IMG/VR virus record: IMGVR_UViG_3300049171_000092
Span: 21,279 to 85,278 of that record
Length of the DNA stretch: 64,000 nt
Reading direction: 5' to 3' (one strand)
Source of the DNA: a virus
The position numbers and the translations under genes are program-made. The notes beneath the pieces are model-generated. The model worked only from the letters and a program-made list of their open reading frames with translations. It was not told where the DNA came from and did not search any database. Shown in pieces: positions 4,690 to 35,000 of this stretch (its first letter is position 1; the number at the start of each line of letters is the position of its first letter).

Positions 4690-4698
4690 AGACGGAGC

Positions 4699-9724: not shown

Positions 9725-9734
9725 TACGCAGAGG

Positions 9735-11289: not shown

Positions 11290-11312
11290 GGGCACCCCTG
11301 TGTGAGGAGGTA

Positions 11313-11333
11313 GCCCGGCCCACAACCAGCGGC
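11313..11333 (-). promoter_or_regulatory. late-gene box copy 3
   Basis: GCCGCTGGTTGTGGGCCGGGC, preceded by CCTAACC. Confidence 0.6.
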
Positions 11334-11369
11334 ACCATCAGGTTAGGCGGGATGGATCCCCTGGGGTGG

Positions 11370-12713
11370 TCAGTAGCCGCGCCCGGACACGGCGACCGTC
11401 ACCGTGGCGTCCTCCGCAGGCGGCACCATCTCATCCGTCTCCAGGCACACGACGAGCGTGCCGCACTCGATCTCCGGCCAGGACGGTGGCGCCCCGTCGC
11501 GGCCCCACACATTCGTCGCCGTCTCGCAGGTGCCGCCGCACTCCACGGTCGCGCGCCCGATCTGCCCGTCGAGCGTCAGCGTGCCACTCGCGGGCACGAA
11601 CCCCACCTCGTACACGGCGAGCGGGTCGCAGCGTTTCTTGTCGGCCACCTGCGCCGCGGTCAGGCCCGCGTCGGCATCGCCCCGCTCGTAGAAGCTGATC
11701 GTGAGTCGGCGCAGGTCCTCGCTGCCCGCGTACACGGTGATGACCGGCACGTCCGACGACCAGGCGGGCCGCCCCGTCAGGTCGAGGTCGTAGCACTCCC
11801 GGTTGGTGGCGAGCGCTTGGCAGAAGCAGGAGGCGGGCGATGTCGGCTGCGGCGGCGACGGCGGAGCGCACGACGGGTCGGCGCACGCGGCGCCCGCGTC
11901 GGGGCAGCCGCGCAGCCGGCACCCGCCGGGCAGGCACTGCGGGAACCAGATCGGCCGGTCGTTGCGGTGCACACACCACTGGATGCAGTCGGTGTCGTCG
12001 TCGGTGGGGACGTTCACGCTCAGCACGGGCGTCTCGTCGGTCCATCCCCACGGCGTGGCGGCGATCAGCACGAACTCGACCGTGAGGATGTCCGCGCCGC
12101 GGCTGCACTGCCCTGCCGTACAGTTTCCGTCGCCGTTCCGCGCGGTCACGGTGGGCCCCTGCACGAGCGCCACACGCCGGTAGGTGCGCCGGTAGCGGGC
12201 GAGGAACTCGGCGGGCGTCTGCTCGTCGCCGGGGCAGCACTTGAGCATCTGCACGCAGTCACCGCCGCACGCGCTGCCCGTGCAGCCCTGCAACGCCTCG
12301 CCGAGCCAGTGAAGCCCGTACTCGACGGCGCAGCACGTCGCGCCGAGGAGAATGCCCGTCACGGTGATCGTGCGGGGCTGCACCCGAGCCGGGCCGAGCG
12401 CGCCGCCCCCGGCGACGGAGTTCGTCACCGTGCGGCGTACCGGGTAGTCGTCGATGCCGTCGAAGTCCAGCGGCAGGAACCCGACGAAGTCGGCGCTCTC
12501 GGGCACGTCGGGGTCGTACCAGGGCGCTGGGCTGTCGGGGTCGTCCGGGGTGGTGTAGGGGGCGTGGTCGAGCGTCTCGGCTGTGAGTGTCTCGCAGCCG
12601 CAGATGTCGTCGGCTCCCGACGTCAGCGGTGATCCGACCGTCGCCAGGTAGGCGCGCAGACGGGCCGTGTTGACCACTTCTATGCCGCCCACGGAAAGGA
12701 AGTCGGAGAGCAC
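11370..12713 (-). CDS. minor tail protein (about 447 aa, Cys-rich)
   Basis: First minus-strand gene after the tape measure gene. I preferred the GTG at 12713 (..LSDFLSVGGIEVVNTARLRAYL) with a GGGGG SD. The track start at 12776 would translate the box. Confidence 0.6.
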   Translation of the reverse strand: MLSDFLSVGGIEVVNTARLRAYLATVGSPLTSGADDICGCETLTAETLDHAPYTTPDDPDSPAPWYDPDVPESADFVGFLPLDFDGIDDYPVRRTVTNSVAGGGALGPARVQPRTITVTGILLGATCCAVEYGLHWLGEALQGCTGSACGGDCVQMLKCCPGDEQTPAEFLARYRRTYRRVALVQGPTVTARNGDGNCTAGQCSRGADILTVEFVLIAATPWGWTDETPVLSVNVPTDDDTDCIQWCVHRNDRPIWFPQCLPGGCRLRGCPDAGAACADPSCAPPSPPQPTSPASCFCQALATNRECYDLDLTGRPAWSSDVPVITVYAGSEDLRRLTISFYERGDADAGLTAAQVADKKRCDPLAVYEVGFVPASGTLTLDGQIGRATVECGGTCETATNVWGRDGAPPSWPEIECGTLVVCLETDEMVPPAEDATVTVAVSGRGY

Positions 12714-12737
12714 GAGCGAACCCCCAGAACGCAGAAC

Positions 12738-12758
12738 GCCCGGCCCACAACCAGCAGC
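12738..12758 (-). promoter_or_regulatory. late-gene box copy 4 (variant)
   Basis: GCTGCTGGTTGTGGGCCGGGC, ending 24 nt before the GTG at 12713. Confidence 0.5.
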
Positions 12759-12939
12759 GTGTGAAAAGTCTGTCACACCTCACGGAGCATGCTCTGAACT
12801 GGCACTTTGCCGGTAAGTACTGCAACTTTCAGGGTCGTTGGAACGTCGTTATACGTGAGCGGGCCGCCCCGGTGTTGCGACCACCGGAACGGCCCTGACC
12901 GACACCCCTTGTGGCTCTTGGACCTGAAGGAGTACGGCT

Positions 12940-17334: not shown

Positions 17335-17362
17335 CGGGCACCCTCACGTGATCGTGAATGGT

Positions 17363-18184: not shown

Positions 18185-18210
18185 AGGTCTTTCCCTGTCT
18201 CCCGTTCCTC

Positions 18211-18232
18211 GCCCGGCCCACAACCAGTCGGC
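18211..18232 (-). promoter_or_regulatory. late-gene box copy 6 (1-nt insertion)
   Basis: GCCGACTGGTTGTGGGCCGGGC. Confidence 0.5.
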
Positions 18233-18259
18233 GCACTACGAAGGGTACTGGCCGTGCCG

Positions 18260-19218: not shown

Positions 19219-19227
19219 GAGGGCTCC

Positions 19228-20037
19228 TTACGGCCAGACCTGGGTGCGGGACCGCCGGTGGTCTGGGCTGTAGACGCGGCTGGGGGACGTGAGGCGGTGG
19301 GGGTTGACCGTGGTGAGCCAGAGGTCGACGAGGGGTAGACCGGTGCGCATCTCGGTGTAGAGCAGCGTCGGGTCGGCGAACTCCTGGTCGACGCCCTGCC
19401 GCGACAGACGGGTGACGTTCGCGGGCAGCTTGCAGCCGCACGCACCACCTCCGTTGCAGCCTTTGAGTAGGTGGCAGACGAGTTCGCTGTAGGCGGCGAT
19501 CGCGGCGTCGTCGAGAGGCAAGCCGATCCGGTAGTGCACAGCGAACGTGCCCGGTTCACCGGCGGGCGCGGCGAGGTCCTGGCAGTCGGGCCAGCAGCCG
19601 CCGTCGGTACGCACCAGCAGCCCGGGTGAGTCGACCCGGTACGCCGACGTCGGCAGCGTCACGCCGTCGACTTCAACGCCGAGGATGTCGTAGACGGGGC
19701 CTTCGAGGCGGACTTCGCACAGCTCGGTGCAGGAGCAATCCGTGGCGCAGCCGCACACGGAGGCGTTGCGCCACTGCCCGTCGCGGCCGATGTACGGGAT
19801 CCACGGGGAGCCGCCAGTCCAGGAAGAAGCGAGCGGCAGGGAGTCGAGGCAGCTGCGCCGGCAGGGCCGCACCGTGTACGGGCAGGACGGGCCCCAGCGT
19901 CGGCCGGACAGGTTGAACAGGATGGTGGTGGCGACCCGCTTCCAGCGTTCCAGGACCGCCTCGTCGGCGTCGTCGGCGGCGGGGCAGCACGACAAATCGA
20001 GTGGCCAGGGCTCACACAACGGCCGTTGCAGGGCCAC
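19228..20037 (-). CDS. head-to-tail adaptor-like protein (269 aa, Cys-rich)
   Basis: MALQRPLCEPWPLDLSCCP..ILFNLSGRRWGPSCPYTVRPC.. resembles N-termini of actinophage adaptor proteins; GAGGAG SD. Confidence 0.55.
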   Translation of the reverse strand: MALQRPLCEPWPLDLSCCPAADDADEAVLERWKRVATTILFNLSGRRWGPSCPYTVRPCRRSCLDSLPLASSWTGGSPWIPYIGRDGQWRNASVCGCATDCSCTELCEVRLEGPVYDILGVEVDGVTLPTSAYRVDSPGLLVRTDGGCWPDCQDLAAPAGEPGTFAVHYRIGLPLDDAAIAAYSELVCHLLKGCNGGGACGCKLPANVTRLSRQGVDQEFADPTLLYTEMRTGLPLVDLWLTTVNPHRLTSPSRVYSPDHRRSRTQVWP

Positions 20038-20135: not shown

Positions 20136-20822
20136 TTACGGCACCGGGACGGGTACCGCCGCGTAGTCACACGACGGCACCGGAGGCGGCGTCGTCGTTA
20201 TGAACGTGCGGCGGTGGCAAGAGCTGTCGAGCGGGGTGAGCATCGGACCCGGCGTGCCCGCGGCGTCGATCGGCATGACGTCGTAGGGGCCGACGCCCCA
20301 CGAGCCGCCGGCCCGGGTAGAGCCGGTGATCTGGAGCGTGACGGCCTCCGAGCCGATCTCCAGGTCCCCGAGGAGCCCGTTCGTGACCCACGGCAGCAGG
20401 AAGTAAATCCACTGCCCCTCGGCGCCCTCAGCGCACTCCTCGCCCAAGACTTCGGCCCACAGTTCCAAGGCGAAGCCGGTGTCGCAGCGCACGCTGCAGG
20501 TGTCAAAGCCGATCGGGGCGCCGTCGTAGCCGAGGACGACCGGGTTGCCGGTGAGGATTTCGATCAGCTCCGGGCTGACGGAGAACACGTTCATCTCGAT
20601 GTCGAAACCGCGGAACGTGGGACAACCCCGTTTGAATCCGCAGATTCGGCCGTTCGATGCCTTGTATTCGATGTCTTCGCCGTCGTCGGAGTTGTTGTTC
20701 ATCGCCAGGCTGGCGAAGCAGTCGAAGACGAAGCCGTTGTCGGGGCCGGGGATCGGGTTCCCGCAGCGGTCCAACCTGGTGACGCGCATGACGTCAGCGT
20801 TTGCAATCAGAGGGCAGGACAA
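20136..20822 (-). CDS. putative major tail (tube) protein, 228 aa (tentative)
   Basis: It has its own box, an AGGAGG SD and a strong downstream hairpin, as expected for an abundant structural protein. ..VTNGLLGDLEIGSEAVTLQITGSTRAGGSWGVGPY.. is reminiscent of actinophage tail tube proteins. TTG start. Confidence 0.4.
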   Translation of the reverse strand: MSCPLIANADVMRVTRLDRCGNPIPGPDNGFVFDCFASLAMNNNSDDGEDIEYKASNGRICGFKRGCPTFRGFDIEMNVFSVSPELIEILTGNPVVLGYDGAPIGFDTCSVRCDTGFALELWAEVLGEECAEGAEGQWIYFLLPWVTNGLLGDLEIGSEAVTLQITGSTRAGGSWGVGPYDVMPIDAAGTPGPMLTPLDSSCHRRTFITTTPPPVPSCDYAAVPVPVP

Positions 20823-20922: not shown

Positions 20923-21222
20923 TCAGGCGGCCGGTTCCTGGGGCGGCCGGTAGCCGGAGATCTGCTGCGCTGCGGCGTCGGGGATCCCTGCGGTGAGGAG
21001 CGCTTCGTAGGCGTCTTGTTTCGCTGCGGTCTCGGCGGCGCGCCGGTCGGTGACGAGCTGCGCGTTGTTCGCTTCGAGGGTGGCGCGCTCCTGCTGGTAC
21101 TCGGCTTCGGTGATCTCGACGGCGCCAGCCGGGGGCGGTACTTGCTCGTTCTCGTCGGTGACGGTCACTGTCACGGCGCGCAGGGCGCCGGTGTCGAACC
21201 GGTAGTACAGGGTTTTGTCCAC
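20923..21222 (-). CDS. 99-aa protein, paralog of 7654..8022
   Basis: Shared YY..G..V.V..VP.P.GAVE..EY....SGY pattern; follows the fibre-like paralog. Confidence 0.55.
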   Translation of the reverse strand: MDKTLYYRFDTGALRAVTVTVTDENEQVPPPAGAVEITEAEYQQERATLEANNAQLVTDRRAAETAAKQDAYEALLTAGIPDAAAQQISGYRPPQEPAA

Positions 21223-21234: not shown

Positions 21235-22092
21235 TTACAGGACGAAGATGAAGCAGCGCTGGGCTGTCTGGATGCGGTCGAAGGTGGCGCCGCCGCTGCC
21301 GCGGCCCATGCGCACGGAGAACGGCAGAGAGAGGGTTCCGCCGGGCGGAATGGTGCGGTTGAAGACCTTGCAGCCCTGGGCGTGGACCTTGTTCATGGTC
21401 GTCGTGCCGGTGTTCTCGAAGTAGTACATGTCGTCGTCGCCGAGCGCGGCCATGGCGCCACCGCCCGGCGGGATGTCGAAGTCGACGTCGAGTTCCATCT
21501 CGTAGACCACGAAGGCGGGCCGGCAGGGGTCGGGGTTGGTGATGGTGAAGTCGCGGACTTCGATCTCTGCCTCGGCGGTGGTCGGTACGGGGGTCGCCGG
21601 GTAGGTGTCGTCGATGACTTGCTGCTGGAAGTCTGTTACCGGGCGGGGTTCGCTGCGGAGTTGTCCGGTGCTGTCGCAGTAGACGTTTCCGGCGTAGGTG
21701 TCGGGGGTGCAGCCGGTGTAGGGCCAGGTGCCGACGGCTGCGGCGAGGGGGGCGGTGGTGGTGCCGTCGCCGGTGAGGCCGCATGCGGTGTCGAGTTCGG
21801 CGTAGAGCCCTTCGGGTCCGGCTTGGATGAGGTTGGTGCCGCCGCCGGGCGGGGTGGCGTCGAGGCGGACGGTGGAGCTGACGACGACCGGATCGGCGGT
21901 CGTTCCGGTGCCGGTGATGGTGGTGTCGACGGTGGGGGTGTCGCCGGCCTGGATGACGGTCGGGGTACCGCTGCCGCCGCCGGGTGCGGAGATGACGTAG
22001 GGGTTGGTGGTCGAGCCGCCGCCGTCGATCTCGACGCCGGGGCCGGCGACGAGCGTGCAGGTGCAACGCTTCGCGCCGCAGCAGTCGGCCAT
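21235..22092 (-). CDS. fibre-like protein (285 aa), paralog of 8015..8857
   Basis: MADCCGAKRCTCTLVAGPGVEIDGGGSTTNPYVISA.. and ..GGATFDRIQTA... The ATG at 22092 lies 28 nt after a box; the track start at 22131 would translate the box. Confidence 0.65.
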   Translation of the reverse strand: MADCCGAKRCTCTLVAGPGVEIDGGGSTTNPYVISAPGGGSGTPTVIQAGDTPTVDTTITGTGTTADPVVVSSTVRLDATPPGGGTNLIQAGPEGLYAELDTACGLTGDGTTTAPLAAAVGTWPYTGCTPDTYAGNVYCDSTGQLRSEPRPVTDFQQQVIDDTYPATPVPTTAEAEIEVRDFTITNPDPCRPAFVVYEMELDVDFDIPPGGGAMAALGDDDMYYFENTGTTTMNKVHAQGCKVFNRTIPPGGTLSLPFSVRMGRGSGGATFDRIQTAQRCFIFVL

Positions 22093-22120
22093 GGGAGCAC
22101 TCCTCAGGAGGTGAGAGAGT

Positions 22121-22224: not shown

Positions 22225-25200
22225 TCAGCCGTTCGCCGACGACGGCGGCAGGAAGCAGGGGGCGACGCGCCAGCCGTCCGGCGGGGCGTCCTGGCGCTGC
22301 CCGTCCTCGTCGAGGTAGTAGATCGAGTCGTCGCAGCACACCATCCGCGTCCACGACCGCGTCTCCGGGATCACCTGGTAGAAGACCTTCAGGTGCACCA
22401 TGAGGCCGGCGCCGCCGCCCACGGTCTCCTCGACGTCGAGGTAGAGCGCGTTACGGCCGGCCTTGGCGCCGGGGATGGCGTCCGGCCCGAAGGTGTAAGT
22501 CGTGCCGTTGTGCGTGGCCGACGCCGGGAGGGTTTGCCAGGCGCCGTCGTTGAGCCTGAAGGCCCTTCCGGCCTGGTCCGCGTTGAAAACCGTCGCCTGC
22601 ACCCGAATGCTGCTGGGATCAGCGTTGTCCGGCAGATCGAAGAACGCCCGCGGGTACCAGTGGACGTTGAGCAACGACGGGCCCTCGTTGGGCCGTGGCG
22701 GGCTCGACTGCGCCGACCGGCCATCCGGGTGCGGGCTCACCCACCACGCCGGCCGCGCCGTGTCGGAGTCCCGCACCGTCCAGTCAGCGGAGAACTGGAA
22801 CTGGTACATGTCGTACCAGACGGGGCTCGCGGCGTTGAGGTCCGTGGTCCACTTCCACACCGGGTCGACAGTGTTGTCGTTGCGATGCGCTTCGTTGGAG
22901 ATGAACTCGCGGGTCTGCGTCGGGATCTGCTGGATGCACACCTGCACGGGCTGGCAGCAGTTGTCGCCGCACGTGAGCGTCGCCCGAGCAGGGATCGCCG
23001 AGCCGGTGACCGCGTCGACGACCTTGATGCGGCCCTGGCAGTCGGCGAGCTTGACGGCCGGCCACGGCACGGTGTCGACGACGACGCCGCAGAACCGCTC
23101 GAAGTGCGGCGCGGGCGGGTCGCCGAAACCGGTGGTCGTCAGCGTCAGGCGCACCGGCTTGGAGAACTCGATCCGGTACCGGTCGCCGTTGTCGACGTTG
23201 AGCTTCGTCGGGTCGTCGTTGCGCGCGACGCCGTTACCGGCGAGCGCCCGCAGCGTCACCACCACGCCGTTGAACGTCGCCGTGCCGACGTAGCCGGCGG
23301 GCGACTGCGTCGGGTGGATCGGGATGGCCGGGTTGAACGCGGCCCAGTTGATGTCTCCGCCGAGGTCGCCGCTGGTGAACCCGAACGCCGAGATGGCGCC
23401 CGTGCTCGACTCGTAGGTGCCTTCCCAGGCGGTGACCCTGTCGCCGTAGCCGTAGCGGGGGTTCGTCGCCGTAGCGAGCATGCAGTCCGGGTAGGAGGCG
23501 CTGTTCAGGTCGAACCCGACCGCACCGTCTGGCATGGAGTAGGTGCACTCTTCCACTACCGACAGGTCGCACGGCGGCTCCTGCTGGCACTGGCCGACGT
23601 CGCCGACCGGCACGTATGGGGTGACGCCGTCCATCAGCGTGTCCGTGACGCTGGTGACCTGCCCGTCGCAGTCCCGGCAGATCCGGCGCAGGAACTGCCC
23701 GCCCGGAGCCACGCTGAAAGCGCCGACGTAGTACGTGAAGAACGTCGTGCACGCCGCGATCCTGCTGCCCTGGCCGGGCTGGGTCGTGAGGCTCGTGACC
23801 GGGCCCGGGGTGCGGAACCGGGCCATGTGCTCGGGCTGCGGGTCCGTCACGTAAGTGCAGCTGTCCGTGGTGCCGTCCCAGGTGCGGGTGAGCACACCCG
23901 TCGCCGGGTCGTAGGTGTAGTTCTCCGGCAGGCTCAGGACCTCCAGCCCGACGGGGAGCTGCGCCTGGTTGCTCGGCGGGTTCGTCGGGCTGCCGATCAG
24001 ATAGACGGAGAACTCCACGACGGACGGCAGCGAGAACGTCCACCGTGTCGGCGCATCAGCCAGGTTGGGGAACGAGTGCAGCCCCCAGAACGCGATGCCG
24101 TCGCTGTTGGCGATGCGCGCGGGCATCGCCGTTCCCGTGCTGAGCGGGCCGGGGTTGCGTGCAGTGTAGGCGACACCGTTCGCCAGGGTGCCTTGCGCGG
24201 CGGTGCCCGTGATGGTGGCAGGGCTGCCCGAGTCGCACAGGATCAGCGTCTCGCAGTCCGCGCAGGGCGAGGAGGTGGAGGGCGGCTCGGGGCAGGTGCC
24301 CGCCTCGCCCTGCACCTCGTACAGGGTGACGCCGTCGAGGGTGGTGTCCGCCGTCGTCACGCCGCCGGCGTCCCGGCACAGAGTGCGTAGGAACGGGACC
24401 GCGACGTCGGCCGCCACGGTGATCTGCCCGTACTGGCTGGTCTGCCCGGCCGTCTGCGCGCCGGTGAGAACGGGCGCGAACATGGTCTGCGCGGTCAGGG
24501 CGTCGGTCTTGAAGACGGACTCCCCGACCTGCGTGGCGGAAGCGGTCGGGGAGATCGTCCGCGTGGCCGCGTTCCAGGTGTGCTGCACGGTGTTGATGCT
24601 GTCGAGGTACCAGCCCGCGGGGATCCGCAGCGGCGTGGCGGTGGGCCCGGAGAACCTGACGGTGTAGCGGATGGACACCGGCCGGTCGAAGTCGAACCGC
24701 TCGGGCGCGTTGTCGGCGGCGAGGTACCAGCCGTCTCCGGAGGCCATGTCCAGGCCGCGCTTCATCCAGCGCACGCCGTTGGCGGCGAGGGTTTGCCACT
24801 GCTCGTCCGGTGTGCCGAACGACGGGAGGACGGCCGGCACCTGGTGCTGGACGTCGCAGAGCTGGACGATCTCGCAGTCCGTACCGGGCGGGGTTTCGCA
24901 GGCGCCCGTGGTGCCGAGCACCTGGTAGGCGGTGGTCCCGTCGAGGGTGGTGTCCGTGACGGTCGTCTCGCCGGTGGCACAGTCGCGGCACAGGGTCCGC
25001 AGGAACGGCACCGGGCCGGGGTTGAGGACGAACCCGCCGACACGGGTGGCACCGACCTGGCCGCAGATCGGCACTGCCTGCGGGGTGGTGATGACCATCG
25101 ACGAGACCGGTGCCGCGGTGAGGAACGTCGCGGACGTGGCGACCGCCGGCGTGCGCAGCGACGGGCAGTCGTCGCTGGTGCTGCTCAGGGTTCGGGTGGC

Positions 25201-25989
25201 CGCGTCGTAGCTGTACCCCTCCGGCAGGTGCAGCGGGATGACGTCGGTCGAGAACGTCACCGATCCGGGCCCGACCTGCACCACACTGAACTGGACGGTG
25301 GAGGGCTGCCCGAATTCCCACGTCTGCGGTCCGGCGCTGTCGCGCGGGTAGGTCTGGATGCCGTACCAGTAGCCGGTTCCGTCGGCCGAGGCGACGTTGG
25401 CCTCCAGCTCCATCGGGCCGTTGTTACCGTCCCCGGTCACGGACCAGGAGACCCCGCTGGATGCGGTCCCCGATCCCGCGTTCTCCGCCGGGGCGATGAC
25501 CCCCTGGGGGCCGGTAGTGGCGGACAGGACGTCGCAGAGTTGCAACGTCTCGCAGCCGGCGCACTGCGGCGGGGTGCAGACGCCGACGGTGCCCGTGACG
25601 GTGTACGGGGTGCCGTCGAGGGTGAGGTCGGTGTGCCCGTCCGGCTCGCCGGTCGCGCAGTCGTAGGAGTAGCGGCGCAGAAACCGGACGGGCTCGCCGC
25701 CACCGGCCGGGGCGTCGCACAGCAGCTCCGTGTGGCTGTCGCAGCCGCCCTCGGTGGGGCACTGCGTCAGCTCACCCTGCACCGTGTACGCCTCGCCCGT
25801 GACGGGGTCGACGGTGCGCGTCGCGACGCGCTGGCCCGTGGAGGCGTCGTAGACCGGCTCGACGGCCACCAGGGCGGCGACGGTGCCGTCTGGCAGCACG
25901 TCGCACATGACGAGCGTTTCGACGTCGAGCCGCTGCGAGGCGGCGGGGTTGTTGAAAACGACGGGCTGGCCGCAGCCGCATCCGCTCAC
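22225..25989 (-). CDS. giant Cys-rich modular repeat protein (1254 aa), unknown family
   Basis: GTG start with a GTGA overlap on the upstream stop. Five FLR..C.D..TG..TD.LDG.PY..G..G.C modules are separated by three paralogous domains of about 170 aa, plus a C-terminal domain of about 350 aa. The first 136 codons of the track ORF overlap the upstream gene and were rejected. Confidence 0.75.
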   Translation of the reverse strand: MSGCGCGQPVVFNNPAASQRLDVETLVMCDVLPDGTVAALVAVEPVYDASTGQRVATRTVDPVTGEAYTVQGELTQCPTEGGCDSHTELLCDAPAGGGEPVRFLRRYSYDCATGEPDGHTDLTLDGTPYTVTGTVGVCTPPQCAGCETLQLCDVLSATTGPQGVIAPAENAGSGTASSGVSWSVTGDGNNGPMELEANVASADGTGYWYGIQTYPRDSAGPQTWEFGQPSTVQFSVVQVGPGSVTFSTDVIPLHLPEGYSYDAATRTLSSTSDDCPSLRTPAVATSATFLTAAPVSSMVITTPQAVPICGQVGATRVGGFVLNPGPVPFLRTLCRDCATGETTVTDTTLDGTTAYQVLGTTGACETPPGTDCEIVQLCDVQHQVPAVLPSFGTPDEQWQTLAANGVRWMKRGLDMASGDGWYLAADNAPERFDFDRPVSIRYTVRFSGPTATPLRIPAGWYLDSINTVQHTWNAATRTISPTASATQVGESVFKTDALTAQTMFAPVLTGAQTAGQTSQYGQITVAADVAVPFLRTLCRDAGGVTTADTTLDGVTLYEVQGEAGTCPEPPSTSSPCADCETLILCDSGSPATITGTAAQGTLANGVAYTARNPGPLSTGTAMPARIANSDGIAFWGLHSFPNLADAPTRWTFSLPSVVEFSVYLIGSPTNPPSNQAQLPVGLEVLSLPENYTYDPATGVLTRTWDGTTDSCTYVTDPQPEHMARFRTPGPVTSLTTQPGQGSRIAACTTFFTYYVGAFSVAPGGQFLRRICRDCDGQVTSVTDTLMDGVTPYVPVGDVGQCQQEPPCDLSVVEECTYSMPDGAVGFDLNSASYPDCMLATATNPRYGYGDRVTAWEGTYESSTGAISAFGFTSGDLGGDINWAAFNPAIPIHPTQSPAGYVGTATFNGVVVTLRALAGNGVARNDDPTKLNVDNGDRYRIEFSKPVRLTLTTTGFGDPPAPHFERFCGVVVDTVPWPAVKLADCQGRIKVVDAVTGSAIPARATLTCGDNCCQPVQVCIQQIPTQTREFISNEAHRNDNTVDPVWKWTTDLNAASPVWYDMYQFQFSADWTVRDSDTARPAWWVSPHPDGRSAQSSPPRPNEGPSLLNVHWYPRAFFDLPDNADPSSIRVQATVFNADQAGRAFRLNDGAWQTLPASATHNGTTYTFGPDAIPGAKAGRNALYLDVEETVGGGAGLMVHLKVFYQVIPETRSWTRMVCCDDSIYYLDEDGQRQDAPPDGWRVAPCFLPPSSANG

Positions 25990-28535
25990 GTCGTGACTCC
26001 TGTCGTGAAGTTGATCGTTACCGTTCCGGTCTGGGCTGCGATCCGCAGCGGACCGACGAGCCTGGCGTCGATGTCTTTGCTGATCGCCCACCGGGCTGTC
26101 TCGCCGTCGTGCAGGGTCGAGGTGCCGTCGGCGGTGGTCACCTGGCCCGTGCCGGTGCGCGCGGTCGCCTCGACGGTGCGCAGCAGCGGCCAGGCGTCGG
26201 CGTCCCACGTCTCGCCGGGGTCGAGCTGCACGCGCCGCGCCTGCACCACGACGGCGGGTTCGGCGTCGCCGGTGTTCGTGTCGGCGTCGCACGGGATCGG
26301 TGCGATCGGCGTGTAGGGGGCGGAGAGGTCGGGCGTGTACGTGCCGAGCGGTGTGAGCGTGCCGGAGGTGTCGGCGAGGAGCAGCTCGGCGTAGCACGTA
26401 TCGGCGGTGCCGTCGCCGTCGGTGTCGTCGCAGCGTTCGGCGCGGATGATGCTCGAGCCGGCCGGCGTGCTGCTCGCCGGACAGAGGCCGACGGTGCCGG
26501 CGGGCGTGTACGGGGTGACGCCGTCGAGAGCGAGATCCGTGACGTCGAGGACGGCGCCGGTGCAGGTGAACGCGACGCGGCGTAGGAACGGCGTCACCGT
26601 GCCGTCTATGGCCGTGTCGCAGAGCGTCATGACGGCCGTGTCGCAGGGCTCGGCCGGTGGTGCGTCACCGTCGGCGTCGCAGTCGACGGGCGAGACTGGC
26701 GCGTAGGCCGCGGACAGGTCGGGCAGGTAGTCGCCGAGTGGGCTGATCAAGCCGTCGCAGTCGACGGCGAGGAGCGCGACGTAGTCCGTATCGGCGACGC
26801 CGTCGCCGTCGGTGTCGTCGCAGCGGCAGACGCGGAGCACGTTCGTCGTCGTGCACGGCTGGGGCGGGACGGGTGGGGATCCGGTGCCGCTGCCGGGTAC
26901 GCACTGCCGGACGTCGCCGCCGACGGTGTACGGGGCGCCGTCGAGCGTCGTGTCCGTGATCTCGGTGACCTGGCCGGTCTCGCAGTCGGTGACGATCGTC
27001 CGTAGGAACTGGACGGCGCAGCCGTCGAGGGTGGCGCCGATGTCGACTTGATCGACGGTCCATGCCTTCGGCCCGAGGTGGTGCGTCTCGAGGATGAGGA
27101 TGACGTACAGGTCGCCGGAGGTGAGATCGGCGGCCGTGATCGGGGCGATCGCGTTCAGTGTCTGCTGGTAGCCGACGGGCGGATTCGAGAGGACGCCTTC
27201 GCCGAGGAGTCCGGTCGTGCCCCGGTAGATGCCCATGCGGCCGACGTAGGCGATGCCGTCCGTCGGCCCGTTCAGGGTGACCCGCATGGAGACGGAGAGG
27301 CTGCCTTCGCCGCCCTCGCAGGGCTGGCCGGTGATCCGGCCGACAGCGACGCGGTAGACCTGCGAGCCGTCGCCGGCGGAGGCGTCGGCGTCTGCGGGGA
27401 ACGTGAACGGTCCGCCTGCCCACAGGTCGGCGAACGAGCCGGGCAGCGTCGCGAACGGGGTGGTGAGGCCGACGTCTTGGATCGTCGCGTCGCTGATCGT
27501 CAGCGGTATAGGAGTCGCCGTGAGCGTGGTGTCGCACAGGACAACGGCTGTCGTGTCGCGGCACGGCTGCGCGTCGCATGAGGTGATCGTGCCGGTCGGC
27601 ACGTAGGCGGCGCCGTCGAGCGTGTAGTCCGAGTGCCCGACGATCGCACCCGTTTCGTTGCGCCGGTAGTCGCGCAGGAACGGCGTCACGGTGCCGTCGG
27701 CGGCGACTTCACACAAGACCGCGAGGTCCTGCTCGGGCTGGTCTATGCCGGTGGGGCAGGTCGTGATCTCGCCCTGCGGCGTGTACGGCTGGCCGGTGGT
27801 GGCGTCGACGAGCTGAACGCCGCCGACGCTGCCGTCGGGGTTGTAGGTGTACTGCACGAGGACAAGGCCGAGGACGTCGCCGGTCGCCGGGTCCGTGTCG
27901 CAGAACGTGCCGGTGGTCGAGATGTTCCGCGGCGTACCGCAGGCGGTGACTCCGGTGGGGGGCTGCCCGGCGGAGTAGGCGCCCGTCGCAAGGTTGAGCC
28001 AGCCTTCCTGCCGGATCACGCCGTCGCAGTCGCGGGTGACGAGGACGGCGATGGGTGTGCCGTCGGCGAGGCACAGGCCGAGCGTCGCCAGGGGTGCGCG
28101 CTGCTCGAGGCAGTCGGAGCCGCCGTCGCAGGATCGTACTTGGCCGATGACGACGTGCGGGGTCTCGCCGTCGATCTCGACGTCGACGTAGGCGGCGGTG
28201 CCGTTGGAGAGGAAGGTGAACTTCCGCAGGAACGGGCGGCCGGAGTCGTCGCAGAGCATCTCGGTGTGGCACTGCATGGTGCCGTGCTCGCAGTCGACCG
28301 GCGAGATGGGCGTGTACGGCTCCGAGGGGTCGCCCTGGTAGGTGAGGACGAGCTGGCTGGTGCCGTCCTGCTCGATGCACCAGAGTTCGCTGTAGGTGGT
28401 GTCGGGCAGGCCGTCACCGGTCGTGTCGTCGCAGCGCAGGACGCAGGTGGTGGTGACGCACGTGGGGGGGCATTCGCATTCGCCTCCGCCGCCTCCCCCG
28501 GCGCCGCAGGTGCAGCCGCTGTAGGAGATGGCCAT
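25986..28535 (-). CDS. giant Cys-rich modular repeat protein (849 aa), unknown family
   Basis: N-terminus MAISYSGCTCGAGGGGGGECECPPTC. Four FLR..LDG.PY modules and three RCDDTDGDGxADTxY..PDLSxxYxP..CDAD modules. Coupled to both neighbouring genes. Confidence 0.75.
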   Translation of the reverse strand: MAISYSGCTCGAGGGGGGECECPPTCVTTTCVLRCDDTTGDGLPDTTYSELWCIEQDGTSQLVLTYQGDPSEPYTPISPVDCEHGTMQCHTEMLCDDSGRPFLRKFTFLSNGTAAYVDVEIDGETPHVVIGQVRSCDGGSDCLEQRAPLATLGLCLADGTPIAVLVTRDCDGVIRQEGWLNLATGAYSAGQPPTGVTACGTPRNISTTGTFCDTDPATGDVLGLVLVQYTYNPDGSVGGVQLVDATTGQPYTPQGEITTCPTGIDQPEQDLAVLCEVAADGTVTPFLRDYRRNETGAIVGHSDYTLDGAAYVPTGTITSCDAQPCRDTTAVVLCDTTLTATPIPLTISDATIQDVGLTTPFATLPGSFADLWAGGPFTFPADADASAGDGSQVYRVAVGRITGQPCEGGEGSLSVSMRVTLNGPTDGIAYVGRMGIYRGTTGLLGEGVLSNPPVGYQQTLNAIAPITAADLTSGDLYVILILETHHLGPKAWTVDQVDIGATLDGCAVQFLRTIVTDCETGQVTEITDTTLDGAPYTVGGDVRQCVPGSGTGSPPVPPQPCTTTNVLRVCRCDDTDGDGVADTDYVALLAVDCDGLISPLGDYLPDLSAAYAPVSPVDCDADGDAPPAEPCDTAVMTLCDTAIDGTVTPFLRRVAFTCTGAVLDVTDLALDGVTPYTPAGTVGLCPASSTPAGSSIIRAERCDDTDGDGTADTCYAELLLADTSGTLTPLGTYTPDLSAPYTPIAPIPCDADTNTGDAEPAVVVQARRVQLDPGETWDADAWPLLRTVEATARTGTGQVTTADGTSTLHDGETARWAISKDIDARLVGPLRIAAQTGTVTINFTTGVTT

Positions 28536-28939
28536 CAGCTATCCCCCTCGGGGTGGGCCTGGCGGCGGTGGGTGTTCCGGCCGCGTTCGGTCGCGAAGGT
28601 GCGCGGGCACCGATCGCAGGCGTAGGCGTCGTCGGCGTCGTCGCTGGGGGCGTCCTCCAGCGGCGCGAAGTCCGAACCCGGCCCGGTCTCGCTGAAGGCC
28701 TCGGGGGTGGCGACACCCAGGAGTTCCTGGTCAGCGTCCTCTTCGGGTGAGCGGTAGCGGTGGCCGTCGACGAGGGAGCCGATCAGCAGCTCTTCCGGCA
28801 TGTGCGTGAACAGGTCCGGGGGGACGGCGAACTCGCTGTGGGAGCAGGTTTCTACCTGCGGGGTCTGGGCGGTCGCCCACCGGGCGAACGCTGCACGCCG
28901 CTCGGGCGCGGGCCGCACTTTGATCATCGTCAGCAGCAC
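28535..28939 (-). CDS. 134-aa acidic protein with a C-terminal classical C2H2 zinc finger
   Basis: YACDRCPRTFATERGRNTHRRQAH fits C-x2-C-x12-H-x4-H; overlaps both neighbouring genes. Confidence 0.6.
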   Translation of the reverse strand: MLLTMIKVRPAPERRAAFARWATAQTPQVETCSHSEFAVPPDLFTHMPEELLIGSLVDGHRYRSPEEDADQELLGVATPEAFSETGPGSDFAPLEDAPSDDADDAYACDRCPRTFATERGRNTHRRQAHPEGDS

Positions 28940-29766
28940 GTCGAGATCCTCACTGCCGCCGCCTCACAGCACGCCACCTCGATCACGGAAGTGCGCTCGG
29001 CGAGGACGTACCGGTCATTCAGGCGGGTGTCGATGCTCCCGGCCTCGGTGGGCGGGATGATGTCGAGCGGTCCGCGCCGCACCCGCACGGGCCCGGTGAT
29101 GTAGAGCCACGCTTCGCCGTCGGGTGCCTGCGTGCAGGTCGGCCCGCCGACGTTCGTGGCGTAGCCGGCGCCCATCACCACGCCGTTACCCATGAGCGTT
29201 TCGGGGCATTGGGTGTCGCGGGTGCGGGTGACGACGTTGCAGCAGCCCAGCAGCGCTGCCGCGCCGGCAGGGATGTGCAGGATGCCTTCGCCGCCGTAGT
29301 GCTCGGCCAGCCAGCCCTCCAGCGCGGCGATGCCCTGCGCGGCCGGCAACGCCCCCGACGCGGGGGTGAGGTCGTTGTCGGCGGCCATCGTGCACAGGGC
29401 GTTCATCATGAACCAGGATTCGAGGGCGCGCTGCTCGCCCATGCGGAGAGTTTCCGCAGCGTGCTCGACGGCCTCGTCGTAGGTCATGCCGAACGTGCTG
29501 CACGTGGACCCTGCGTATGTAGTCACCGGGTCGAACTCGCACACCCCGGGCCGGTCGAAGATCTTCGATGCCGGGTTGGGCACGGTGGGGGGCGGGCAGT
29601 CCCGCTCCCACGTGTGGGTCTCCGCGCACGACAGCGGCACGAACTGGGTGCCGTTCATCTCGTGCAGATCGGTGACGTCTACGACCTCTACGCACCCGCC
29701 GAGGAGGCCGTAGGGGCTCGGGTTGCCGCGGATGGGGGCTACGGTCTTGCGCATCCCTCCCGCCAT
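28930..29766 (-). CDS. Cys-rich 278-aa structural protein; possible second HK97-fold (capsid-like) protein
   Basis: I preferred the ATG at 29766 (MAGGMRKTVAPIRGN..). The patterns ..EAVEHAAETLRMGEQRALESWFMMNAL.. and ..LNDRYVLAERTSVIEV recall the spine helix and C-terminus of HK97-like capsid proteins. This is only a weak visual argument. Confidence 0.5.
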   Translation of the reverse strand: MAGGMRKTVAPIRGNPSPYGLLGGCVEVVDVTDLHEMNGTQFVPLSCAETHTWERDCPPPTVPNPASKIFDRPGVCEFDPVTTYAGSTCSTFGMTYDEAVEHAAETLRMGEQRALESWFMMNALCTMAADNDLTPASGALPAAQGIAALEGWLAEHYGGEGILHIPAGAAALLGCCNVVTRTRDTQCPETLMGNGVVMGAGYATNVGGPTCTQAPDGEAWLYITGPVRVRRGPLDIIPPTEAGSIDTRLNDRYVLAERTSVIEVACCEAAAVRISTCC

Positions 29767-29842: not shown

Positions 29843-31489
29843 TTAGGCGGTCGGGCAGGCGACGGCGGCGCGCGGGCCGACGGAGCCGTCGGCGCAGACC
29901 GGGATGGTGATGGCGCGGGCCTGCGGGCCGCGGTAGATGAGGGCGTTGCAGGACTCGAAGAACAGGGCGGTCATGTCGTTGGTGCGCAGCAGGGTGCTGT
30001 CGTGGACGACGCCGAGGTTGATCTCGGGGCCGCGGCCCATCTGGAAGGCGCCGGCCGGGTAGAGCAGGGCCTGCACGGTGGCGGGCCAGGCGGTGGCGGG
30101 GGTGGTGTTGCCGATCTGGGTGGGGACGGCCGGGGGCAGGCCCTTGACCCACTGGACGCGGACGCCGAGGTCGGCGAAGGCCTGCTCGACGCAGTTCTGG
30201 TTGAGGTCGCAGACGTTGACGCCGTCACGGCGGGCGATGTCGGCGAGGAACATGTTGCGCGCCCAGTACGGCAGGACCAGCTCGAGGCCGATCCGCTCGC
30301 AGAGGTTGAACCGTTCGGTCATGTCGGCGATCTGCAGGGCGAGCGCCCCGTACACCGCCGAGAAGGACGCGAAGCTGGTGGCGGTGGTGACGGGCGTGGC
30401 CCGGGTGAGGGCCTGCTGGTACATGGCGGCCTTGAGACGCATCTCGTAGGCAACCATGGCGCGGCGGATGTAGAAGGTGGTCAGTTCCGGGAAGAACCGC
30501 TGGGAGAGGATGCCGGCCTGGATGCAGGCGCCGTAGGCGGTGCAGCGGACCTCGACCGGGTCCACACAGGGGATCTTGAAGCAGGGCTTGGTGGGGTCGC
30601 CGTCGACCGCGCTGATGTCGTCGGCTTCGGTCCAGACCCACGACATGGCGGTGACGTCCAGCTCGGGTGTCATGTAGTAGCGCAGCCCGCCCCGGGACAG
30701 GTTGAGCTCGGGCAGGTCCCACAGGTTGTCCGGGCAGGAGATCTCGGTGAAGTCGTACACCGTCTCTGAGGGGGCGCACCAGCCGCCCGAGGCGACGAGG
30801 TCACCGCCCTTCAGGCGCCGCTGGTCGGCGGCCTTCAGGACCTTGGTGGTGCCCTCCTCTGGGGAGCCGGCGTCGTTGATGACGAGGTCCTGCGGGAAGG
30901 GCAGCTGGTACGAGGCGGCGATGGCCTTGCCGCCGTTGGTGACGAGCTGCGCGACCTTGGTGACGGACTCGGTCAGCCCGTCCATGTCCAGCGGTGCGCC
31001 GAGGCTGGCGCCGGGGACCTCGGCGGAGGCGACGATCGTGACGGCCGGGGTGCCGGACTGCGGCATCGGCTGCCGCGGCTGCCGCTCCCGCACGGTGGCG
31101 AGGCTGATGATCGGGCGCCGCACGACGGCGGACGACGCGGCGACCTCCTCGACGACCGGCTCCTCCTCGGCGGCGGGCTCGGCCGGCTCGTCCGTCTCGG
31201 CGGCCGGGTGGTCGTCGGTGTCGGTGGCGGCTTCCTCGCCGAGGACCTGGGCGGCGAGTTCGTCGAGTTCAGCGACGGCAGCCTGCGCGGCTTCGACGCG
31301 CTGGGTCTGCTCGGCGCGCAGCGCCTCGATTCCGGTGGCCAGCTCCCGCAGGACGGGCAGGTCTTCGGTGGTGAGGTTGGGGTCCTGACGCCGGGCGTTG
31401 AACGCCTCGACGGCGGCGGCGAGGGTGGCGTCGAGGTCCTCGCTGCTGAGGCTGGTGACGTCGTCGGGAAGCTGGAAGGGCTCGGACAT
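29843..31489 (-). CDS. major capsid protein with an N-terminal acidic/coiled scaffold-like region (548 aa)
   Basis: Position after the MuF/protease gene. The first 150 or so residues are acidic coiled coil. ..LVASGGWCAPSETVYD.. is a motif seen in actinophage capsid proteins. The gene has its own box. Confidence 0.75.
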   Translation of the reverse strand: MSEPFQLPDDVTSLSSEDLDATLAAAVEAFNARRQDPNLTTEDLPVLRELATGIEALRAEQTQRVEAAQAAVAELDELAAQVLGEEAATDTDDHPAAETDEPAEPAAEEEPVVEEVAASSAVVRRPIISLATVRERQPRQPMPQSGTPAVTIVASAEVPGASLGAPLDMDGLTESVTKVAQLVTNGGKAIAASYQLPFPQDLVINDAGSPEEGTTKVLKAADQRRLKGGDLVASGGWCAPSETVYDFTEISCPDNLWDLPELNLSRGGLRYYMTPELDVTAMSWVWTEADDISAVDGDPTKPCFKIPCVDPVEVRCTAYGACIQAGILSQRFFPELTTFYIRRAMVAYEMRLKAAMYQQALTRATPVTTATSFASFSAVYGALALQIADMTERFNLCERIGLELVLPYWARNMFLADIARRDGVNVCDLNQNCVEQAFADLGVRVQWVKGLPPAVPTQIGNTTPATAWPATVQALLYPAGAFQMGRGPEINLGVVHDSTLLRTNDMTALFFESCNALIYRGPQARAITIPVCADGSVGPRAAVACPTA

Positions 31490-32036: not shown

Positions 32037-35000
32037 TCAGGCTCCTTCCTGCTGCGGTGCAGCACTGGCGGTCAGGGCGAGGTCGGTCGGTTCGACCAGC
32101 GCGGAGAGGGCTTCGAGTTCGGCGCGCATTCGGGCGCGTTCGGTCTGCCGCTGCTCGAACGCGTCGACGAACCGGTCGAGGAAGGCGGGGCTGGTCAACA
32201 GGTCGGCCGCGGCCTGCACAACGTCGGTGGCGGGAGCGGTGTCGGCTGCCCGCCTATGCGACGGCTCGGGCTCGACCTCCGGCTCGGCGGTGGTCTCGTG
32301 CTCGGCGTCCAGGGTCGCTGCGGCAGCCGTGAGCGCGAGGTTCGCCCGCTCGACCACGGCGGTCGCGGCCAAGTGCGCGGCAGCGGCCAGCCGGTATCCC
32401 GGCTTGAGCGGCGATGAATGCCCCGGCACTGGGACAGTGAGGACCGCGCGTAGTTCATACTGGCCGCTGCTGCTCTGCGTGAGGTGGTAGCTGGGTTGGC
32501 AGCTTCTGAATACCCGAAGATCCCACTCGCTGATCCAAGGGGCCGCCGCCCCTGAAAACCACAGGCCGCCCTTGTTCTGTCCGACCGTGACGATGGCCGC
32601 CACGGTGCCAGAATCGTCGAATTGGCAAGCTGCGGTCTCGCACTGCCACCCGTCGCGATGGTGGCCAACGTTCATCGTGAACGCGCCGACCGCGATCATC
32701 GTGCCGTCGTCGAGCTCGAACTCCGCGCGCAGGAAGTGCGAGAAGTCCAGCGGCCCTAGTTTGTCGATCATCACCTTGCGGCCGTAGACAGCGTGCGGCA
32801 CGCCCGCCTGTGCAACCCAGCCGTATACGCGGCCGTCCTTGTAGTGGACACCCCCGCTACCGGGCGGCAGTTCCTCCTCGGTCGGCTCACGGAACCACTC
32901 GGCAGGCATCGGCGGCTGCTCTTGCATCACCCGCCAGGCGGAGGCTTCCAGCTCGCTCATGTCGCCGTCGTCGTCGCTGGTGTCGTCGTCCCACGGTGGC
33001 CGGATGCTCGGGTCGTCGAATGCGGTGGCCAGGCTTTCGTACAGGTCGTCGACGTGTTCGCGGATCTGTTCCTGTTCGTTCTCGGGGATGTCGACGCCGC
33101 CGCGCGCACCGGACAGGGCACCGGCGACGGCGTACACGCCGCTCGCGACGATCTCCAGCCGCGGGCCGTCACCGGTGTCGAAGACGTCGGCGAAGCCCAG
33201 CTTGTAGGCGGTGAGGGTCGCCGGGTCGGCGTCCGGATCGCGGTAGAGGAAGGCCCGGCCGAGGGCGTCGGCGTCGACGGTGCCGTCGTCGCCGGTGGCC
33301 CAGTCGAGGACGCGGGAGGCTGCGGCGTCGCCGTCCCACTCGGCGTCACGCTTCGCGTGTACGGGCAGGCCGAGGTCGCCGGAGGCCGCCGCGATCATCT
33401 CCCCTTCAGGGATCGACGAGGGGGCGGTGTACAGGCCGCGGCCGATCCGCAGAACCCGGCCGTCGCGGACGGCAGTGCGCAGGTGCCGCTTGGTCGTCGA
33501 CACGGTCAGGCCGAGCGCGTCGGCGACCTCACGGGCGCCGACCGGTACCGGTGACGTGCAGACGTGCCCGATGACCCGCTCGAGGTCGTCGCCCGCCGCC
33601 GCGGCCACTTCCGTGACCGGCTCTTCCTCGTCGACCGGCTGCTCGGCAGTGGGGTCGAGGACGATGCGGGCCTTGTCGTAGGCCGGCATGGCGACCAGGG
33701 TGGCGCCCCTGACCCGGGCGCGGGTGATCCGCACGAGAAGGTCGCCCGAGTTCTCAGTGTGGACGACGGTCCCGGACTGAGGGTTGTCGGGGTCACCGGC
33801 TGCTGCGGTGAGCGCGCCGGGGAACAGGGCGCGGGCGGCGTCGGCGGGGATGCGTCCGCCGGGCCCGGAGATGACCGACGCTGTCCGGGTGCTGCTCTGC
33901 ATCGCGGCGCCGGACGCGGTCCACTCGGGGGTGCTGCTCGCGGTGATCATCCATCCGCCGTCGTGCAGGGGCAGGACGGATGCGCGGGCGTAGGAGGCGG
34001 CGGCGAGGACAAGGTCGTTGTCCTCGCCCTCGTTCTCTCCGCTGCTCGTGTTGTCGACCAGTTCGATGTCGACGTCGTCGAGGTCGACGGACACGCCGAG
34101 CGGGGCGCCCTGCCGCAGCAGCATCGCGGCCTCGGCGCCTGCGCGCTGCATCAGGTACAGGACGCCCGTGCCGGTGAGGCGCGGGCCGTCGATGTCCATC
34201 TCCTGGATGGCGCCGGCGAGTTCCGCGCCGTCGTGGCCGGCTCCCATCTCGTCGGCGTACTGCAGGGGCCACGGCCCGCCCTCCCAGTAGAGGGAGCCCT
34301 CGGCGAAGACTCGGCCGTCGCCGGTCTGCTGGCCGATGAACGCGAGGGCGGCGTCCCCGGGGGTGGACCAGGTGAGGATCGGTGGCGGGTCGTCCGCCGC
34401 GGCGGCTGTGGTGTGGGATTCACGCACGAGGTTTCCCTCTCCTGCTGGGCTGGTGGCGGCGCTCTGCTCGGTGTCGGCCCGCGCGAGGGCGAGGACGCAG
34501 CGGCAGTTGACGGTTAGGGCTGCTGAGGCGGTGGGGTCGCCGGGGTAGGCCATGTCGACGCCGCCCACTCGGAAGGGCTCGTCGAGGAGTTGCAGTTGGG
34601 CGTCGGCGTCGGCGTGGGTTTCGCGGACGCGCTGGTCGTGGCGGGTGATCCACTGTTTGACGAGGGGCCGGTCCGGGCCGGTGAGCGCCTGCGCGGCTGC
34701 CAGGGTCGCGGCGTTCCAGACGCGCGTGGACTCGGTGCGGGCGATGCGTTCCTCGCGGGTCTCCCCCAGCTGGGCGCCGTCGGCGGAGAACAGGGCACGC
34801 AGCCGGGTGCGCAGGGCCTCGGTGTCTTCGCCGGCGTCGAGGCCTTCGGCGAGCGCGGTGATGGCGGCTTCGGTGAGCCGGTCGCCGACGGCGCGCAGCA
34901 GGTGCTCGGTGGCCTCGGCGTAGTCGCCGAGAGACGGGGGGAGGGTGTCGTCGTCGTACCGGCCGGGCAGGTCGGTCCAGTCGTCGGGCAGTTCACCGTC

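Follow-up and report, generated by a model that had tools for sequence, protein, structure and literature searches.

This analysis concerns two very large, adjacent genes in a 64,000-nucleotide stretch of viral DNA (positions 21,279 to 85,278 of IMG/VR record IMGVR_UViG_3300049171_000092; the whole stretch is referred to as the window). The genes, g849 (25986..28535, minus strand) and g1254 (22225..25989, minus strand), encode modular proteins of 849 aa with 38 Cys and 1254 aa with 40 Cys, here called the giants. Both are predicted to be strings of Cys-framed beta units of ~55 residues. This tandem scaffold, with a fixed loop slot for swapped beta-sandwich domains, is apparently a new design, and judged by sequence searches the giants are a family never characterised. 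We read them as accessory, disulfide-stabilised, carbohydrate-binding virion adhesins that are more likely located at the tail tip than on the head, and give this reading an even chance of being correct. Its parts that we infer are virion association, glycan binding by the domains of the window, disulfides and the site of attachment. An earlier note, made from the letters of this DNA, had proposed an undescribed virion appendage such as a head fibre or long adhesin. A modular, all-beta and plausibly disulfide-stabilised adhesin is retained from that proposal; the head fibre drew on gene position alone.

Units and domains of the giant proteins

Both giants matched PHROG 18824 (function unknown) in multiple stretches each (phrog_18824; E 2.1e-215 for g849 and 2.8e-54 for g1254). 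Neither gave a match in Pfam, NCBIfam or PDB, by sequence or by profile. This agrees with the earlier note, in which neither protein could be placed in a known family, and profile searches and AlphaFold/Foldseek returned no confident homology to a characterised fibre, adhesin or toxin family. Six long homologues scanned against Pfam had no co-occurring known domains. Among isolated phages, members were retrieved by tblastn from three only: Mischief19 (gp18), Xkcd426 (gp17/gp18) and Saccharomonospora phage PIS 136 (PIS_002). These phage members of PHROG 18824 have the same units, with 41-46% identity across the N-terminal array, and differ from the giants in unit number and inserted domains; PIS_002 is encoded after tail-tip genes, and none of them has been studied.

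The census of homologues yielded 293 clusters at 90% identity for g849 and 252 clusters for g1254, all called hypothetical. Host genera were Streptomyces, Nonomuraea, Streptosporangium, Microbispora and related genera, and by far most family members were found in bacterial genomes, i.e. in prophages. The g849/g1254 pair is conserved, judged by adjacent locus tags, and g1254 is 100% identical to P0121 of a Joint Genome Institute (JGI) metagenome. Residues 1-321 of g849 are 62-85% identical in homologues that are divergent downstream, and residues 1007-1245 of g1254 are 72-86% identical in many homologues with a diverged remainder. Conserved ends combined with mosaic, swapped middles are, at the level of sequence, a pattern typical of host-range proteins.

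Repeat copies were scored with leave-one-out hidden Markov models (HMM). Real copies reached 25-77 bits, the maximum of 1000 shuffles per copy was 9-16 bits, and 0/1000 attained the real score. Module A of the earlier note is present in g849 in the 4 copies counted there (starts at residues 102, 286, 510 and 650). In g1254, 4 canonical FLR copies were found (103, 329, 533 and 766) instead of five; the claimed fifth is presumably a divergent variant at residues 22-77. This variant, designated type C, also occurs in two copies in g849. The three copies of module B in g849 (residues 35-82, 572-620 and 702-750) were confirmed by the leave-one-out HMM and the shuffles. Types A and C are homologous in profile-profile comparison (hhalign 96%, E 1e-9). 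Types A and B can be aligned in register, with LCD opposite RCDD, DG opposite DG and PY opposite PY (P 1.3e-4). A single ~55-residue unit, with (L/R)CD at its start and PYxPxGxxxxC at its end, is the probable origin of all three types, the A-B link being weaker than the A-C link.

In AlphaFold2 (AF2) predictions, each unit is a three- or four-stranded beta meander (predicted local confidence, pLDDT, 85-90). The models are all-beta, with a mean pLDDT of 69 for g849 and 76.7 for g1254 (residues 55-1254); in g1254, pLDDT is 85-95 from residue ~325 onward. In g849, a Cys motif at the N-terminus is combined with nine units of ~55 aa, of which one holds an inserted beta-sandwich domain, and the protein closes with a beta domain. 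Units U1-U5 (residues 26-320; types B, A, C, C, A; 27576..28460, minus strand) form the conserved N-terminal array, delimited by HMM and AF2 strand boundaries. Units U7-U9 (residues 565-750; types B, A, B; 26286..26843, minus strand) carry the motif RCDDTDGDG (type B HMM E 1e-31 to 2e-32). g1254 has an SGCGCG motif at its N-terminus and five units, three of them with paralogous inserts; another beta domain and a conserved domain at the C-terminus follow.

The core C-D-D-x-x-G-D-G of module B is invariant and fits DxDxDG, so that the likeness to thrombospondin type-3 or EF-hand loops seen in the earlier note holds for the core itself. It does not extend to the families, as no hit to Pfam TSP_3 or EF-hand was obtained for the giants at E <= 0.1, and module B aligns in register with the beta unit of module A. 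Ca binding by this core is suggested by motif resemblance only. Pfam Ig-like, Big and FN3 domains were not found in the giants either, and Foldseek gave no confident match to Ig-like decoration proteins.

Large beta-sandwich domains of 150-200 aa sit inside units, between the LCD strand and the FLR strand, in both AF2 models. The earlier note had placed them between A modules; the position within units is family-wide. Among 270 family proteins, the LCD-to-FLR gap is bimodal, with 724 units below 20 aa, about 450 at 100-220 aa and almost none between. The g849 insert (type II, residues 337-507; 27015..27527, minus strand; AF2) is located in unit U6 between LCD strand 326-336 and FLR strand 508-546, and belongs to an insert group of 182 members. 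Three type I inserts were assigned in g1254 (all minus strand): insert 1 in unit U3 (residues 158-326; 25012..25518) by paralogy, and insert 2 in unit U4 (residues 380-530; 24400..24852) and insert 3 in unit U5 (residues 585-764; 23698..24237) by AF2 and paralogy. Inserts 1 and 3 are 32% identical across 171 aa (E 7e-23); for inserts 1 and 2 the match has E 1.6e-7. The paralogy noticed earlier among the large domains is thus that of the three in g1254; the g849 domain is of a different type. Across the family, at least four insert types are exchanged among slots.

In the slot equivalent to g1254 insert 1, homologue P0145 carries a domain matching Pfam CBM_4_9 (29.8 bits, cut-off 25.9 bits), and about 20 inserts similar to it are present across the family. 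A sequence link between the CBM_4_9 inserts and g1254-type inserts was discarded as a single-linkage artefact of a double insert. For the other insert types, Pfam returned only sub-threshold, Cadherin-like matches. With Foldseek, the whole-chain g849 model matched HpiC1-like Stig cyclases, which have a fold like that of carbohydrate-binding modules (CBM), at probability 1.0 and a TM-score of just 0.31-0.37, a low value that reflects alignment of the entire multidomain chain. The g1254 model had weak matches to lectin- and adhesin-like beta-sandwich proteins. Against viral models it matched PIS_002 and Xkcd426 gp18/gp19, followed at low probability by distal tail, galactose-binding and F5/8-type-C proteins. 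Further whole-chain matches (glycosidase accessory modules, Cry toxins, antigen I/II, cohesins) were rejected as generic beta-sandwich likeness at low TM-score, from which no homology was inferred.

At its C-terminus, g849 has a beta domain of ~87 aa (residues 763-849; 25989..26249, minus strand; AF2 pLDDT 81-96), which is kept in many homologues and also ends longer g1254-type proteins. In g1254, unit U5 is followed by an all-beta domain without a Pfam match (residues 806-1000; 22990..23574, minus strand; AF2 pLDDT about 90) and by a Trp-rich C-terminal beta-sandwich domain, delimited by conservation and AF2 (residues 1007-1245; 22255..22971, minus strand). Eight Trp of the latter are invariant, as are D, E, H and N residues. 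In a search of 1.84 billion proteins, this C-terminal domain was found in 58 representative clusters. About 55 of these are the family's large proteins or fragments, in which its position varies, and the last few matches were weak and partial. Its profile gave chance-level matches only against PDB and Pfam.

The accessory cassette and the neighbouring capsid genes

The window has a G+C content of 70% and its genes lie on the minus strand. As described in the earlier note, g849 and g1254 are preceded by two smaller genes, g278 (28930..29766; 278 aa, 14 Cys; phrog_779 E 3e-72) and g134 (28535..28939; 134 aa; phrog_30321 and phrog_17728), and all four overlap and are coupled. Sequence searches of Pfam, NCBIfam and PDB returned nothing informative for any of the four proteins. 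Overlaps of stop and start codons are 10 nt (g278/g134), 1 nt (g134/g849, TGATG) and 4 nt (g849/g1254, GTGA). A purine-rich, Shine-Dalgarno-like stretch is located upstream of each of the four starts, and the GTG start of g1254 is backed by homologues starting with MSGCCGQ or MSGGCGCGQ. Plus-strand open reading frames (ORFs) as long as 665 aa, very rich in G+C at third codon positions, extend over the giants (22393-24390, 24580-26316, 27633-28625 and others). They are the usual shadow ORFs of 70% G+C DNA and not genes.

Upstream of this block, profile matches identified the terminase (37584-39008), the portal (35433-37253), a 1091-aa MuF/protease fusion (32037-35312) and the hexon-type major capsid protein MCPh (29843..31489; 548 aa; phrog_777 E 7e-150), all on the minus strand. 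Downstream of the giants, the minus strand encodes g286 (21235..22095; 286 aa, 10 Cys; N-terminus MADCCGAKRCTC), g99 (20923..21222; ORF with Shine-Dalgarno-like site) and the major tail protein, MTP (20136..20822; 10 Cys; phrog_792 E 2e-91). These are followed, by profile matches on the same strand, by the head-tail adaptor (19228-20037), a phrog_810 protein (18634-19218), the tape measure protein, TMP (14092-17343), a Dit-like protein (11370..12779; phrog_838; 469 aa, 27 Cys), assigned also by size and position, and a phrog_837 minor tail protein that is Tal-like (10264-11337). A fibre-like protein was matched at 8952-9734. The location between capsid and connector genes given in the earlier note is amended in two points: g278 itself is read as a capsid gene, and MTP and then the adaptor follow. 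No phage genome was matched when the region was compared by megablast. The best explanation of these sequence matches is that the structural operon in the window is that of a siphophage or prophage of Streptomyces type and of the Rosebush/Jabs structural lineage.

MCPh is 46-54% identical to the 'major capsid hexamer protein' of Streptomyces BG/Woodruffvirus phages and matches 877 actinophage records, 496 of them of Mycobacterium phages. The family profile of g278 aligned with the 'major capsid pentamer protein' gp16 of Rosebush (hhalign 97.5%, E 8e-12, 233 columns of 272 residues), and the same label is attached to two Gordonia phage homologues of g278. In the Mycobacterium abscessus phage Jabs, the 257-residue MCPp (ORF73), whose gene lies beside that of the hexon protein, forms the pentons of a T=9 capsid by cryo-electron microscopy (cryo-EM) (Cambillau et al., bioRxiv 2026, doi 10.64898/2026.07.24.740622). 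g278 matches this protein in position and size. The order portal, MuF, MCPh, MCPp, ..., MTP, adaptor, ..., TMP, Dit, Tal is common to the window, Rosebush and Jabs, and the Dit-like protein (469 aa) and Jabs Dit (478 aa) are both encoded after the tape measure gene. On the basis of the Rosebush alignment, the Jabs precedent and the common gene order, g278 is read as a penton-type major capsid protein. g278 had no similarity to MCPh by BLAST or hhalign and no match in PDB, and its family profile was at chance level against PDB and Pfam. Since similarity to the hexon protein is not detectable, an HK97 fold of g278 rests on the Rosebush/Jabs link. Many homologues are called 'cupin' in NCBI annotation. 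The name was set aside and is probably a misnomer: Pfam gave no cupin match, and it is the Rosebush pentamer protein with which the family aligns.

Of g134, the N-terminal ~70 aa are kept in TP1604, Xkcd426, Mischief19 and phiSAJS1. Its C-terminal tail (residues 106-129) resembles a C2H2 zinc finger with the textbook pattern YACDRCPRTFATERGRNTHRRQAH, although the Pfam zf-C2H2 match is weak and under the cut-off (E 0.014). This finger was found only in the window and in its closest prophage (L006); other homologues have basic, Lys/Arg-rich tails. In Rosebush, the gene after the pentamer gene encodes gp17, which was assigned as capsid decoration protein by mass spectrometry and 6-A cryo-EM; g134 is not related to it. 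The phage of the window is best explained, from its predicted proteins, as Rosebush/Jabs-type, with hexons and pentons made of separate capsid proteins and with virion proteins rich in Cys.

Between the capsid module (MCPh, g278, g134) and the MTP gene lies an optional cassette made up of the giants, g286 and g99. It is present in Xkcd426 and Mischief19 and missing in the close relatives TP1604, BabyGotBac, Maih and YDN12. In TP1604 the order is MCPh, g278-like, g134-like and MTP, with nothing inserted between the last two. g278 and g134 were also found in relatives without giants (TP1604 and phiSAJS1, and Gordonia phage Togo for g278). In the cluster BG genome announcement, the genome of Xkcd426 was described as exceeding those of its sisters by 7 kb, owing to orphan genes inserted at 17.8-24 kb (>6 kb). 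This insertion is the giant cassette, exactly at this site, and the mention of it is all that the literature holds on the giants. From TP1604 and the Xkcd426 insertion it follows that the giants, g286 and g99 are a dispensable insertion. The four-gene block of the earlier note is accordingly a composite, in which g278 and g134 are core genes and only the giants, together with g286/g99, are accessory. g286 and g99 occur together in 5 related loci, and no family match was found for either. In L006, a Streptomyces prophage (Logan ERR13655803), the same accessory slot directly upstream of the MTP gene is occupied by a gene for a GT4-family glycosyltransferase (18164-19528; Pfam Glycos_transf_1 / Glyco_trans_1_4), which may serve virion or receptor glycosylation.

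Proposed function and competing explanations

Cys contents are 4.5% in g849 and 3.2% in g1254, next to 2.2% in g134. The giants are thus Cys-rich, as stated in the earlier note, and this is not peculiar to them, since most virion proteins encoded in the structural part of the window (8015-31489) are Cys-rich as well (adaptor 6.3%, phrog_810 protein 8.3%, Dit-like protein 5.8%, MTP 4.4%, g278 5.0%, MCPh 2.2%). Low contents were found in the tape measure (0.09%), the MuF fusion (0.55%), the terminase (0.84%) and an FtsK-like protein (0.28%). With 2.2-8.3% in virion proteins against 0.1-0.8% in the latter set, the giants carry the virion Cys signature. Cys is the second most conserved residue of the giants in a 30-sequence alignment (mean column identity 0.87; Trp 0.88). 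As read from composition, the enrichment is virion-wide and consistent with a disulfide-cross-linked virion as in Jabs, which has about 1,700 disulfides from the capsid to the adhesion device, formed at or after lysis as its authors suggest (doi 10.64898/2026.07.24.740622).

Conserved Cys motifs are located at the N-termini of the giants (MAISYSGCTCG in g849, VSGCGCGQ in g1254) and of g286 (MADCCGAKRCTC). In g849, the motif is part of a Cys/Gly-rich segment MAISYSGCTCGAGGGGGGECECPPTC (28461..28535, minus strand) that is proposed as a covalent anchor. Five N-terminal Cys motifs cover 178/268 family proteins (MPVEPxPC 91, MSGCCG 55, NFTxCxCG 14, MAISYxGCxC 9 and RSxCxxCG 9). For the Jabs receptor-binding proteins ORF61 (C6) and ORF62 (C12), the N-termini are inserted into Dit and disulfide-bonded (doi 10.64898/2026.07.24.740622). 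By analogy, the N-terminal Cys motifs of the giants would be covalent anchors.

In the proposed mechanism, the string of ~55-residue Cys-framed beta units would serve as a semi-rigid spacer, and the loop slots within units would display interchangeable beta-sandwich domains of carbohydrate-binding type, to which g1254 would add its conserved Trp-rich terminal domain. Synthesis of the giants would take place in the reducing cytoplasm and their oxidation at or after lysis, and covalent links to the particle would be provided by their N-terminal Cys motifs. The Dit-like protein is the candidate docking hub at the tail tip, as Dit is for the Jabs receptor-binding proteins. Binding of the displayed domains to host cell-wall glycopolymers would raise or retarget adsorption.

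For the site of attachment, gene neighbourhoods were compared. The giants follow g278-g134 and precede MTP in 47-48/50 IMG/VR loci and in Xkcd426 and Mischief19. In PIS 136 and locus L046, the giant is encoded after the genes for TMP and the Dit-like and Tal-like proteins. One record (loci L056/L058, IMGVR_UViG_3300003316_000274) is rearranged: MCPh is directly followed by MTP and adaptor, the end of TMP lies upstream of MuF, and a fibre, a g286-like, a g278-like and a g134-like gene and a 1661-aa giant come after Dit-like and Tal-like genes. The g286-like gene of L056 adjoins the fibre gene, and g286 homologues of Mischief19 (gp34) and phiSAJS1 lie in the tail-tip gene region. Tail fibres are encoded downstream of Dit/Tal; in the window the giants are not, and in PIS 136, L046 and L056 they are. 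A conserved N-terminal part followed by a variable part with swapped inserts, a feature of receptor-binding proteins, is present in the giants. Since gene order is fluid in this lineage, gene position is weak evidence either way. The precedent of Jabs, the gene positions in the minority of loci and the link through g286 favour a tail-tip adhesion device, and by this analogy the giants are more likely on the tail tip (Dit/Tal hub) than on the capsid.

Known tail-tip adhesins offer the closest comparison. The Jabs receptor-binding proteins (ORF56/57, ORF60-62, ORF65) are built of several domains, of beta-sandwich type or including CBMs (Cambillau et al., bioRxiv 2026, doi 10.64898/2026.07.24.740622). 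Compared by description, they share with the giants the structural lineage, N-terminal Cys and CBM-like beta-sandwich domains. The giants, however, are 4-6 times larger, contain a repeat not described in Jabs, are encoded between head and tail genes, and are missing from Jabs, Rosebush and most relatives. In evolved Dit/Tal and receptor-binding proteins of lactococcal and streptococcal siphophages, CBM-type domains are likewise carried in scaffold loops and exchanged between relatives, and in those systems exchange of the loop-plugged CBM alters glycan specificity. Their scaffold is a Dit galectin domain or a Tal extension, whereas that of the giants is a novel tandem array of Cys-framed mini-domains with no recognisable trimerisation element.

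Several points weigh against virion adhesins of the tail tip. Every member of the family is known from genes and predicted structures alone. The giants come after the penton gene, and not after tail-tip genes, in about 95% of loci. g849, g1254 and their isolated domains have no match in Pfam, including its carbohydrate-binding families, and all structural matches in Foldseek have low TM-scores. The AF2 models are monomers. Jabs, the solved relative, has no such giant proteins, and its capsid is without decoration (doi 10.64898/2026.07.24.740622).

The gene positions would also suit capsid-attached fibres at g278 pentons or hexon turrets, Hoc-like or adenovirus-fibre-like, with translational coupling from g278 through g134 and g849 to g1254 reflecting co-assembly. 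g278, g134 and a giant are adjacent in about 50/53 loci, including L056, in which all three have been displaced jointly from MCPh, and Rosebush gp17, encoded after the pentamer gene, was assigned as a decoration protein. A chain of small beta domains also resembles Hoc-type decoration. T4 Hoc and other Ig-like decoration adhesins are dispensable strings of small beta domains that adhere weakly to glycans, and their genes are in or near the head module; the giants differ in their much larger size and Cys-richness, in giving no Ig-like domain matches in Pfam, and in the tail-tip gene positions of some members. The adjacency counts are not independent, as most loci are close relatives, and with g278 and g134 present in many phages without giants, adjacency may just mark an insertion hot spot. 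In PIS 136 and L046, a giant follows the Tal-like gene with g278 not nearby; the Jabs capsid has no accessory proteins, and g134 is unrelated to Rosebush gp17. Capsid fibres are regarded as unlikely, at roughly one chance in five. A bolder form, in which g278, g134 and one or two giant lectin strings make up a mobile 'penton-fibre' cassette and thereby an adenovirus-like, disulfide-anchored vertex appendage on a siphophage, is considered somewhat less probable still.

Lower again stands the possibility that the giants are non-virion morons, released at lysis or expressed from the prophage, and act in superinfection exclusion, mycelial adhesion or dispersal, or as a decoy. The cassette is dispensable and located between operon modules, a typical moron site; the vast majority of members are in prophages, and the slot can hold other accessory genes such as the GT4 glycosyltransferase of L006. 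Against this, the genes are co-oriented and translationally coupled with late structural genes, and no signal peptide or transmembrane segment is evident at the N-termini of the giants. Their Cys signature is of virion type, with N-terminal Cys motifs like the anchors of the Jabs receptor-binding proteins, and family members also occur in isolated phages that are propagated lytically.

Least probable is a role as virion enzymes, with the g1254 C-terminal or another domain as glycan depolymerase or wall hydrolase on a spacer of units: this domain is the most conserved part (72-86%) with invariant D, E, H, N and W, and Foldseek matched glycosidases with beta-sandwich modules (EndoMA1 arabinanase, sialidases, rhamnosidases), but the TM-scores are very low and probably reflect accessory beta-sandwich modules, Pfam, NCBIfam and PDB profiles indicate no catalytic family, and the domain is a ~240-aa beta-sandwich in AF2 with no recognisable catalytic fold. 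Toxin, pilin and internal-virion-protein readings were discarded, as the giants have no toxin or sortase signal and no helical content, being all-beta.

If the giants are virion adhesins, prime determinants of host range would have been identified in them for phages that infect antibiotic-producing actinomycetes. They would also be an optional new component of the disulfide-cross-linked, Jabs-type virion architecture and a natural display scaffold for engineering.

Further features of the window

A serine recombinase / DNA invertase is encoded at 4120-4728 (phrog_125, E 5e-66), a few kb past the tail-fibre-like genes. Inverted repeats bounding an invertible segment were sought near it, and none was convincing. 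tRNA genes were found nowhere in the window. Within the MuF/protease fusion, residues 587-629 gave weak helix-turn-helix matches (AbiEi_4, HTH_24, IclR-type), all under Pfam cut-offs. The FtsK-like protein used in the Cys comparison is an FtsK/SpoIIIE-like protein encoded at 46125-48278, in the non-structural part (phrog_1358, E 2e-39).

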